Below are positions 32,102 through 34,214 of a DNA stretch of 51,932 bases, one piece after another. Made by a program: the position numbers and the translations under genes. Source of the stretch: an uncultured Clostridia bacterium (lineage in GTDB: Bacteria; Bacillota; Clostridia; TANB77; CAG-508). The stretch is from assembly GCA_947627105.1 (NCBI GenBank), contig CANQUT010000006.1:1-51932 (forward strand), read 5' to 3'. Below the pieces are notes generated by a model, which had not been told where the DNA came from, did no database searches, and saw nothing but the letters and a program-made list of their open reading frames with translations. Numbering within the stretch: position 1 is the first letter of the stretch; each line of letters starts with the position of its first letter.

Positions 32102-32938
32102 ATGTCTAAATCTGGCATAGTAAACGTGAGAATGGTTATCACGGAAGAAAAAATTTTATCAAATATTGATAAAGTACAAAAATTAATTAATCCAAATAGT
32201 AAAAAGCAGATTATTCAATTAGAAGAAGATGCTTATTTTAAGGACTTAATAGAATCAATTAAAACATATTTAATTGAATATCCAAAAAAGAAAAATTTTC
32301 CAAAGAGTGTATATAAAGCAGCATATGCATTAGTTGAGTATGCAACAAATCAATTTGAAGAGAATACAAAGAAAATAGAAGAACTAATTCGCCAAAGAGA
32401 AAAAAATATTGCACTAGCAGCAGAATTAAGAGATACATTAGATGTAGTTCAAAACAAAGAAGAAAACTGGAAACAAGTTGTTAAAGATGTTTCAGGAGAA
32501 TTTCCAGAAGATATTATAGATACATTAGGCTTAATAGGAAGAACAAAATCAGATAAATCTCAAAATTATCAAGATGCTGTTAAATTAATTAATGCTAGAA
32601 TTGCAAATTTAGAATCTAACTTACATATTGAAATAGATATGGAAAGAATAGAAGATAGATCAAAAGCATTAAGTTACATAGGAATTGAAGTAGCAGATGC
32701 ATTAAAATTAATTCCAGCTCCACAAGAAGATGAAGAAGAACAATCTGTTCAAACAGAAGAAATAGCAACAGAAGATAAAAAATATTTTGAACAAACAAGA
32801 GTAGAAGTAAAACCATCATTATGGCAAAGAATTAAAAATACAAAAATAGTTAGAGCAATTGTTTATGCTTTCAAAATAAAAGTAGTTTTACAAGTGCCAG
32901 CACTTCCAGAAGGTAGAGGAGAGCAAGGACAAAACTAA
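32102..32938 (+). CDS. Hypothetical helical protein
   Basis: Strong AAAGGAGG RBS, host-like composition, terminator downstream. Confidence 0.75.
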   Translation: MSKSGIVNVRMVITEEKILSNIDKVQKLINPNSKKQIIQLEEDAYFKDLIESIKTYLIEYPKKKNFPKSVYKAAYALVEYATNQFEENTKKIEELIRQREKNIALAAELRDTLDVVQNKEENWKQVVKDVSGEFPEDIIDTLGLIGRTKSDKSQNYQDAVKLINARIANLESNLHIEIDMERIEDRSKALSYIGIEVADALKLIPAPQEDEEEQSVQTEEIATEDKKYFEQTRVEVKPSLWQRIKNTKIVRAIVYAFKIKVVLQVPALPEGRGEQGQN

Positions 32939-32998: not shown

Positions 32999-33099
32999 TG
33001 CATAAATGCTAATAATTTATAACATATATATTAAAAAAATTAAGTACAAGTATTGACTTTTTCTATAAAATGTTTTATACTTAAAGTCGCATTGCAAAT

Positions 33100-33176
33100 G
33101 CGCCATTAGCTCAGTTGGTCAGAGCAACCGGCTCATAACCGGTGGGTCCAAGGTTCGAATCCTTGATGGCGCACCA
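33100..33176 (+). tRNA. tRNA with CAT anticodon, most likely tRNA-Ile2 (lysidine)
   Basis: ACCGG-CTCATAA-CCGGT arm; TAGCTCAGTTGG D-arm typical of Firmicutes Ile2; encoded CCA. Confidence 0.88.
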
Positions 33177-33235
33177 TAAATACTTAAGTAAAATAATTAT
33201 ATTTTACTTAAGTATTTAATAATAATTTAATATAT

Positions 33236-33568
33236 GGGTAGGTGGCCGAGTGGCTAAAGGCGGCAGACTGTACGCTTTGATTTTAAAATCAAAAAATCAG
33301 AAATTGCAGCCCATATGAGTAATCATATGGTGAATAACTAGGCTAATTCGGGGAAGTCTTAACAGTATTTAAAAGCTGATGATAATCCCGAGCTAAAAAT
33401 TTTAAAGAACTTAAAATTTTGAGTGTAGAGACTTTATACCTAGTATCTTATTATATAAGATAAAGAGCAAGTCCAGACTACAAACATTTAAAATGGTAGT
33501 GAAAACTATAGTAGTAAGAAATCTGTTCTCATTCGAGTACGATGGTTCGAATCCATCCCTGCCCACCA
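33236..33568 (+). tRNA. tRNA-Tyr(GTA), intron-containing (exons 33236-33271 and 33519-33568)
   Basis: Joined exons give an 86-nt tRNA with GCAGA-CTGTAAA-TCTGT arm, long variable arm, GGTTCGAATCC and CCA. Confidence 0.93.
33272..33518 (+). ncRNA. Group I intron (247 nt, no ORF) in the tRNA-Tyr anticodon
   Basis: 5' exon ends in U and intron ends in G; IGS GCAG pairs with exon CUGU; P AATTCGGGGAA, Q AATCCCGAGC, R GTAGAGACT, S AAGAGCAAGTCC; P3 ACTAGG/CCTAGT; P2 CCATATGA-GTAA-TCATATGG. Confidence 0.9.
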
Positions 33569-33718
33569 AAAGTAAGCAGTAATGCTTGCTTTTAAAATAC
33601 TAAAAATACAACTATATTATTTGCAATATTATGTAAAATATGGTATAATTAAATTGCAATTTAATTTGCAATAAATAATGGCTAGTATTACTGGCCAAAA
33701 AGGAGTTGAAAAAAACAT

Positions 33719-34096
33719 ATGGTGAAGCACTACATGGAAGTTCGGTATGAGAACGAAGTCGGCAAATCCTACTTCTACGAAAAGGAAGTAGAGGTTTGCG
33801 GAATTCATGACAATCCCATTCCGGATGGCTGCAGCGGCGTGAGATTCTTCGATTGCGACGTCATAGTCATTAATGGCCATGATCTGAGGAGCGCCAGATT
33901 CAACGAGACTGGCTGGACCTACATTGGCGAAAAAATGACCATCGACGACGCGAAAGAGAACAAAAAAATCTCACTTGAGCAGTACATAAAGTTTTCATCT
34001 TCTGGCCATCACACTGTTGTGATTACCGAGAAAGGAAAGGCTATTCCTTTGTGGGCGGTCGACAATGTGGTTGAAAGAAGATACACCGCTGCTTAA
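33719..34096 (+). CDS. Orphan hypothetical protein, higher GC
   Basis: AAGGAG RBS, TG-TATAAT promoter, terminator downstream. Confidence 0.7.
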   Translation: MVKHYMEVRYENEVGKSYFYEKEVEVCGIHDNPIPDGCSGVRFFDCDVIVINGHDLRSARFNETGWTYIGEKMTIDDAKENKKISLEQYIKFSSSGHHTVVITEKGKAIPLWAVDNVVERRYTAA

Positions 34097-34102
34097 CTCC
34101 AA

Positions 34103-34145
34103 AAAACAAATCCCAAGATACAAATTGTGTCTTGGGATTTGTTTT
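34103..34145. terminator. Bidirectional terminator
   Basis: AAAACAAATCCCAAGATAC..GTGTCTTGGGATTTGTTTT. Confidence 0.88.
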
Positions 34146-34214
34146 ATTATAACTAATAACACTAAAATTATTTGCCATACTTCAAAAGTTTTATAATTGG
34201 AATATTTTAAAAAA

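Follow-up and report, generated by a model that had tools for sequence, protein, structure and literature searches.

Introns that split bacterial tRNA genes have been surveyed across 80413 bacterial genomes, in which 5292 such genes were sorted into 21 types, four of them classical and 17 new (Williams, 2020, bioRxiv 10.1101/2020.01.27.920355). That survey places the classical types all in subgroup IC3, namely Leu.3Ug (in tRNA-Leu(UAA) of cyanobacteria and plastids), fMet.2Ug, Ile2.5Ug (Azoarcus) and Arg.5Ug (Agrobacterium). It also notes that none of the 12 group I seed sequences in Rfam is bacterial. According to the accessible portions of the papers describing two tRNA resources, the detection of group I introns lies outside the design of tRNAscan-SE 2.0, and the only such introns reported by tRNADB-CE are those of Burkholderia Leu(TAA) genes.

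The split gene described here lies in a 51,932-nucleotide stretch of DNA from an uncultured Clostridia bacterium (hereafter the window) and encodes tRNA-Tyr(GUA). Like the classical bacterial tRNA introns, its insert resides in the anticodon loop, falls within the range of about 200 to 250 nucleotides, carries no ORF, follows a U at position -1 and ends with a G, and, as with Leu.3Ug, the insertion is within the anticodon itself. In contrast to the classical examples, the host is tRNA-Tyr(GUA), the insertion site is 35/36, P1 is extended by an additional hairpin, and the Tyr introns form a group of their own in a phylogenetic tree. The locus also resembles the types defined in the 2020 survey, both in having an Intron_gpI match of at least 18 to 20 bits inside a split tRNA called by ARAGORN and in following the rule of U at -1 and a terminal G. 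From the evidence presented below, we consider it highly likely (a probability of roughly 0.9) that the window encodes a working, ORF-less group I intron that is removed from tRNA-Tyr(GUA) by the standard two-step guanosine pathway.

Reading of the sequence between positions 32900 and 33900 reveals a type II tRNA interrupted by 247 nucleotides between its two halves (Table 1). Exon 1 shares 95-100% identity with the 5′ part of the intronless tRNA-Tyr genes of relatives, and exon 2 shares 94-98% identity with their 3′ part. The initial annotation had assigned the coordinates of this gene, the 247-nucleotide length of the insert, the U at the 5′ splice site and the terminal G correctly, as evident both from our reading and from a whole-genome ARAGORN search with introns allowed, a check it had proposed, which reports tRNA-Tyr(gta) i(37,247) with the same ends, 33236-33568. 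Joining the two exons by script generates an 86-nucleotide tRNA that is likewise called tRNA-Tyr(gta). It had also been anticipated that standard tRNA finders may miss this gene, and they do: ARAGORN in its default mode reports only a tRNA-Glu and a tRNA-Met in the window, and Rfam at its gathering thresholds recovers the same two tRNAs, calling neither tRNA-Tyr nor the intron.

In the window sequence alone, the splice junction is ambiguous by one base because A is present both at the start of the intron (A33272) and at the start of exon 2 (A33519). The introns of 10 of 34 orthologues begin with G, and therefore A36 of the anticodon must derive from exon 2 and the insertion must lie between positions 35 and 36. 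This settles the site within the anticodon that had been claimed for the insertion. The alternative junction would leave an A at position -1 and an A as the last intron base, neither of which fits a group I intron.

Table 1. Features of the split tRNA-Tyr locus and its flanks, in window coordinates
Feature	Position	Strand	Description and basis
Sigma-70-like promoter (candidate)	33053..33081	+	TTGACT, 17-nt spacer, TATACT; 10/12 consensus positions; upstream of tRNA-Met
tRNA-Met(CAT)	33100..33176	+	Default ARAGORN and Rfam; conserved neighbour upstream of tRNA-Tyr
tRNA-Tyr(GTA) gene	33236..33568	+	Sequence reading; first base G33236, encoded CCA ending at 33568
tRNA-Tyr exon 1	33236..33271	+	Acceptor 5′ strand, D arm, anticodon-stem 5′ strand, loop positions 32-35 (C32 U33 G34 U35); last base T33271
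Group I intron	33272..33518	+	247 nt, 29.6% G+C, no ORF; tRNA anticodon-loop placement at 35/36
P1	33268..33309	+	Exon C32-U35 and first two intron bases (33268-33273) pair with internal guide 33304-33309; wobble U33271·G33306
P1 extension hairpin	33276-33284 with 33293-33301	+	16 rows show a two-sided change at pair 45/63
P2	33311..33330	+	8 bp, GNRA tetraloop; two-sided changes in 6/8 pairs, pairing in 100% of cells
P3 5′ strand	33338..33342	+	Partner 33439-33443; 3/5 pairs change on both sides
P4-P6 domain	33347..33420	+	RNAalifold, scoring of aligned pairs, single-sequence fold
P4	33347-33353/33386-33392	+	Part of P4-P6 domain
P5	33357-33358/33381-33382	+	1 pair changes on both sides
P5a	33363-33365/33376-33378	+	1 pair changes on both sides
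P6	33396-33405/33411-33420	+	3 pairs change on both sides
P7 5′ strand	33428..33433	+	Bulged A33429; partner 33470-33474; presumed guanosine-binding helix
P3 3′ strand	33439..33443	+	Scoring of aligned pairs
P8 hairpin	33444..33462	+	3/6 pairs change on both sides
P7 3′ strand	33470..33474	+	Scoring of aligned pairs
P9 three-way element	33477..33515	+	Outer stem 33477-33481/33511-33515
P9a	33485-33488/33492-33495	+	2 pairs change on both sides
P9b	33496-33500/33505-33509	+	GAAA tetraloop; 2 pairs change on both sides
Omega G (terminal G of intron)	33518..33518	+	G in 34/34 orthologues
tRNA-Tyr exon 2	33519..33568	+	A36, loop positions 37-38 (A37 A38), anticodon-stem 3′ strand, long variable arm, T arm, acceptor 3′ strand, encoded CCA; first base A33519
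Short hairpin followed by four T (possible terminator)	33572..33593	+	Found by eye; not called by the scan that gave the promoter

A search with the RF00028 model had been suggested as a check on the group I assignment. In permissive Rfam mode, with 501 nucleotides searched, the full model aligns to positions 33288-33476 with a score of 27.8 bits and an E-value of 3.6e-5 (2.3e-5 when the search is genome-wide), but this score is lower than the Rfam gathering score of 50. Other weak Rfam matches between positions 33150 and 33650, which involve models for a plastid UTR, miRNAs and snoRNAs, have E-values of at least 0.013 and were dismissed as chance.

The secondary structure was evaluated by aligning 34 split tRNA-Tyr orthologues (33 distinct rows), 14 from a set of 41 genomes and 20 from a scan of contigs for the core pattern of the intron. 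When applied to this alignment, RNAalifold yields the tRNA helices, P1 and its extension, P2, P3, P4, P5, P5a, P6, P8 and the three-way P9 element, to which the P7 pseudoknot was added by hand. Pairing holds in 98.9% of cells over the 89 pairs scored (24 in tRNA helices and 65 in the intron), compared with 93.0% in shuffled alignments and 35-45% when the partners are slid. Changes on both sides occur in 35 of the 89, tRNA and intron pairs taken together, versus 17.4 after shuffling, and none of 500 shuffles matches the observed values. Covariation thus supports the core from P3 to P9, including the P3/P7 pseudoknot and the P4-P6 domain, whereas P4 (no pair changing on both sides, six of seven invariant) and P7 (all five invariant) provide no covariation evidence of their own and are simply compatible with the model.

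All 33 distinct rows keep the U·G wobble at the splice site, and all 34 orthologues have a U at -1 and a G as the last intron base. Folding of the window intron as a single sequence recovers P1 through P6, P8 and P9 (z = -3.66), and none of 200 shuffled sequences is as stable. The original identification of a group I intron, made from an internal guide sequence and a conserved core, is therefore sustained by the wobble pair, the terminal G, the covarying helices and the RF00028 match. One local departure is the second intron base of the window, a C that breaks a P1 pair kept by 30 of 33 rows.

Peripheral GNRA tetraloops on P2 and P9 are hallmarks of IC3 introns. All 34 aligned orthologues carry a GNRA loop on P2 and a GAAA loop on P9b, for which docking sites can be predicted. 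In a separate alignment, the P7 strands, J8/7 and the GAAA-capped P9 hairpin are common to the window intron, one cyanobacterial Leu(UAA) intron and one gammaproteobacterial Arg(CCU) intron. The Tyr intron belongs to the bacterial tRNA anticodon-loop type and resembles the IC3 subgroup.

The arrangement of these elements suggests how splicing would proceed. The internal guide would pair with C32 through U35 of the anticodon loop to form P1, which places the U·G wobble at the splice site, and a free guanosine bound by P7 would then attack after U35. To form P10, the first two or three A nucleotides of exon 2 would displace the first intron bases from the same two or three U nucleotides of the guide. 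Entry of G33518 into the guanosine site would permit exon ligation and release of the 86-nucleotide tRNA-Tyr. The chemistry, P10, activity in vivo and the placing of the guanosine site in P7 are inferred and follow the textbook group I pathway. Given a G+C content of 29.6%, the intron may require assistance from a protein in cells.

The insert might instead be an element of another kind that resembles a group I intron, such as a group II intron, an archaeal-type bulge-helix-bulge intron, a small mobile element or an assembly chimera. An Rfam score under the curated cut-off is what such an element could produce, but the RF00028 alignment spans the whole model, helices P1 to P9 with the P3/P7 pseudoknot can be drawn and covary, and the U at -1 and the terminal G do not vary. 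Moreover, the same insert occupies the same site in at least 74 independently assembled genomes, and we regard this explanation as exceedingly improbable.

It is also very unlikely, if somewhat less so, that the intron is a dead relic and the split gene a pseudogene, with tyrosine codons being read by another tRNA-Tyr gene that was not assembled. The assembly is indeed a draft (63 contigs, 95.7% complete) in which several tRNA species are missing, as evident by the 30 intronless tRNAs that ARAGORN reports, none of which is for Ala, Ile or Pro. Nevertheless, compensatory changes maintain the intron helices across 34 species, and the exons are still 94-100% identical to intronless genes. Whole-genome ARAGORN with introns allowed finds no other tRNA-Tyr gene in this assembly, and a BLAST search of the genome with the entire gene returns nothing beyond this gene and the core of another intron. 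When the intronless tRNA-Tyr of a relative is used as the query, only the two exons are matched in each of five intron-bearing genomes, namely this one and four others that are 98-100% complete. Similarly, none of the 14 intron-bearing genomes in the 41-genome set has an additional intronless match. A hidden second gene is therefore unlikely, since the pattern across genomes argues against it even though this draft lacks some tRNA species. With no other tRNA-Tyr gene detectable, splicing must work in vivo, and the earlier proposal that splicing would be essential if this were the sole tRNA-Tyr gene holds as far as the assemblies of these five genomes can show.

Public RNA data yielded no direct evidence of splicing, a point that would favor the pseudogene explanation. 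A search of RNA runs with the window locus recovers small shares (0.04-0.08) of the sampled words. Four metatranscriptome runs were assembled onto the locus at 85% likeness, yielding contigs for which DNA carry-over is possible. A 412-nucleotide contig from run X6 contains the tRNA-Met and the entire unspliced split tRNA-Tyr of a relative, with 30 differing letters, and contigs from runs X3 and X7 cover the intron and exon 2. The only joints that skip the intron (33272 to 33538), in runs X1, X6 and X7, were considered as candidate spliced products and rejected, because they include 18 foreign letters and derive from the tRNA-Tyr genes of other organisms.

The survey of relatives that had been recommended confirms that the split gene is widespread. 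In the set of 41 genomes (this one and 40 relatives), 14 have a split tRNA-Tyr, 17 have an intronless gene and 10 give no match. For the 12 intronless loci that were fetched, the gene occupies the same Met-Tyr position, and the Met-Tyr order is common to 26 loci of relatives. We also searched an even sample of 401 genomes from the same order, with matches ranked by E-value and a weak remainder of 606 unlisted. At least 74 of these genomes have a full-length match, and two more have a partial one. Among the matches listed, the split gene spans four of the five families of the order and is present in 13 of 22 genomes of the window's genus. This recurrence, together with helix covariation, indicates that the split gene is not a product of chance. 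Hosts recovered by the core-pattern scan are gut MAGs of animal and human origin, named ‘Clostridia bacterium’ or ‘uncultured Clostridium sp.’. In viral contigs, at least 122 loci match the core pattern, and no split tRNA-Tyr is found among the matches listed.

The core pattern also matches tRNA-Leu(UAA) genes split at 34/35 (12 loci) and a tRNA-Arg(CCU) gene split at 36/37 (one locus). In addition, tRNA-Asn(GTT) is split at 35/36 by a related intron in ten loci from gut Clostridia MAGs. A second split tRNA gene resides in the same genome outside the window, where a tRNA-Thr(TGT) gene (contig C20, 18227-18537) has a 235-nucleotide group I intron after anticodon position 36. This intron matches RF00028 with 36.9 bits (E = 5.8e-8), and over the core it shares 76% identity with the Tyr intron. 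Such Thr(TGT) introns are present in 17 of the loci examined. A further RF00028 match on this contig (16704-16781, 21.5 bits) lies in AT-rich, coding-like DNA with no adjoining tRNA and was treated as chance.

A tree was constructed from 92 introns after one of 93 extracted rows was dropped because it contained an N. All 34 Tyr introns form one group with support of 100/99. Their nearest neighbours are the introns of Asn(GUU), at a node with support of 85/78 that is flagged as a meeting of long branches, followed by those of Thr(UGU) and then by Bacillus Arg(UCU). A branch with support of 98/93 parts the Tyr side from 11 of the 12 Leu(UAA) 34/35 introns and from the Leu(CAA) and Arg(CCU) introns; the twelfth Leu(UAA) intron has a long branch and groups with the Asn introns. 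The Tyr and Asn introns share the exon bases C32 U33 G34 U35, the four-base guide and the 35/36 site, which, together with their adjacency in the tree at modest support (85/78), fits retargeting by guide-directed reverse splicing. We tentatively entertain, as a speculative and rather doubtful scenario, that the introns of Tyr(GUA), Asn(GUU) and Thr(UGU) in gut Bacillota might represent a single recent radiation, in which one ribozyme lineage would have moved between tRNA genes by such retargeting. Spread within species would then fall to a free-standing endonuclease similar to I-Ssp6803I and located outside the intron, a mode termed ‘collaborative homing’ in work on cyanophage psbA introns, and the window would hold a fixed copy that lost the endonuclease.

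I-Ssp6803I is a PD-(D/E)XK homing endonuclease (PF11645, PDB 2OST) encoded within the tRNA-fMet group I intron of Synechocystis. Among the 34 split tRNA-Tyr loci, 16 have a PF11645 gene of this PD-(D/E)XK kind, 126-141 amino acids in length, 20-330 nucleotides downstream (six of the 14 loci in the 41-genome set and 10 of the 20 from the contig scan). These genes match PF11645 with E-values from 2.7e-16 to 3.5e-19, and their best relative of solved structure is a weak match to PDB 2OST (E = 6.5e-4). The gene of the relatives belongs to the same family as I-Ssp6803I, but it is free-standing and outside the intron. None of the 10 intronless loci with at least 698 nucleotides of flank has a PF11645 gene beside it. 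The gene in relatives probably spreads the intron and is a candidate homing endonuclease that would act from outside it.

No homing endonuclease gene lies inside or beside the intron of the window, and neither the window nor the whole assembly has a PF11645-like gene (best tblastn E-value 0.056). The absence of an endonuclease ORF from the intron had been claimed at the outset, and the longest stop-free stretch in any frame is indeed 35 codons. The window copy is probably inherited vertically.

The flanks of the tRNA pair include candidate expression signals. The sigma-70-like sequence upstream of tRNA-Met, judged from its match to consensus, is the probable start of a Met-Tyr transcript, and the hairpin downstream of tRNA-Tyr is a possible, weak candidate for the terminator of this unit. 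The spacer between the two tRNA genes is filled by an AT-rich inverted repeat (33178-33217) of 18 perfectly matched base pairs and a 4-nucleotide loop, which may serve as a processing or pause hairpin. Contigs from relatives have other sequence in place of this spacer, with the joints at 33177. Upstream of the tRNA pair, an ORF of 278 amino acids (32102-32938, forward strand) belongs to no Pfam family, and its PHROGs and NCBIfam matches are marginal (E of at least 0.0046).

A segment found only in this genome, about 600 bp long (roughly 33610-34210), separates tRNA-Tyr from a conserved transglycosylase gene and has a G+C content of 43-45%, versus 20-30% in the surrounding DNA. Relatives have either the endonuclease gene or nothing at this place, and the segment resembles cargo that was acquired recently at a hot spot flanking the tRNA. 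Within it, an orphan ORF of 125 amino acids (33719-34096, forward strand) has no relative in Pfam, PHROGs, NCBIfam or the Atlas. This ORF was considered as an endonuclease candidate and set aside, as it matches no recognisable family.

The initial annotation implied that a tRNA-Tyr insertion would be novel, which is not tenable given how frequent the arrangement is in public genomes of the order. Under the naming scheme of the 2020 survey, the intron would be called Tyr.4Ug. In the main text of that survey, ‘Tyr’ has no occurrences, the types being named in Table 1 and Fig. 3 rather than in the running text (Williams, 2020, bioRxiv 10.1101/2020.01.27.920355). Searches of readable literature found no text describing a bacterial tRNA-Tyr group I intron and no use of ‘Tyr.4Ug’, with the type table of the survey lying outside the searchable text, and no bench test of any Tyr-group intron was found in these searches. 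The Tyr type was probably catalogued in 2020 already, and the feature in the window adds one more example to a kind that is already known and common.

The implications of this locus accordingly reach beyond the window, and none is specific to it. Standard annotation pipelines give this genome no tRNA-Tyr, and the same applies to at least 74 of the 401 sampled genomes of the order. Split tRNA-Tyr genes that are missed in this manner can skew statistics on tRNA complement and completeness for gut MAGs. For the organisms themselves, an essential tRNA is reliant on ribozyme splicing across a clade of gut bacteria with reduced genomes. Natural alleles with and without the intron, and with and without the endonuclease, exist in this clade and offer a handy system for the study of intron gain, loss and homing.
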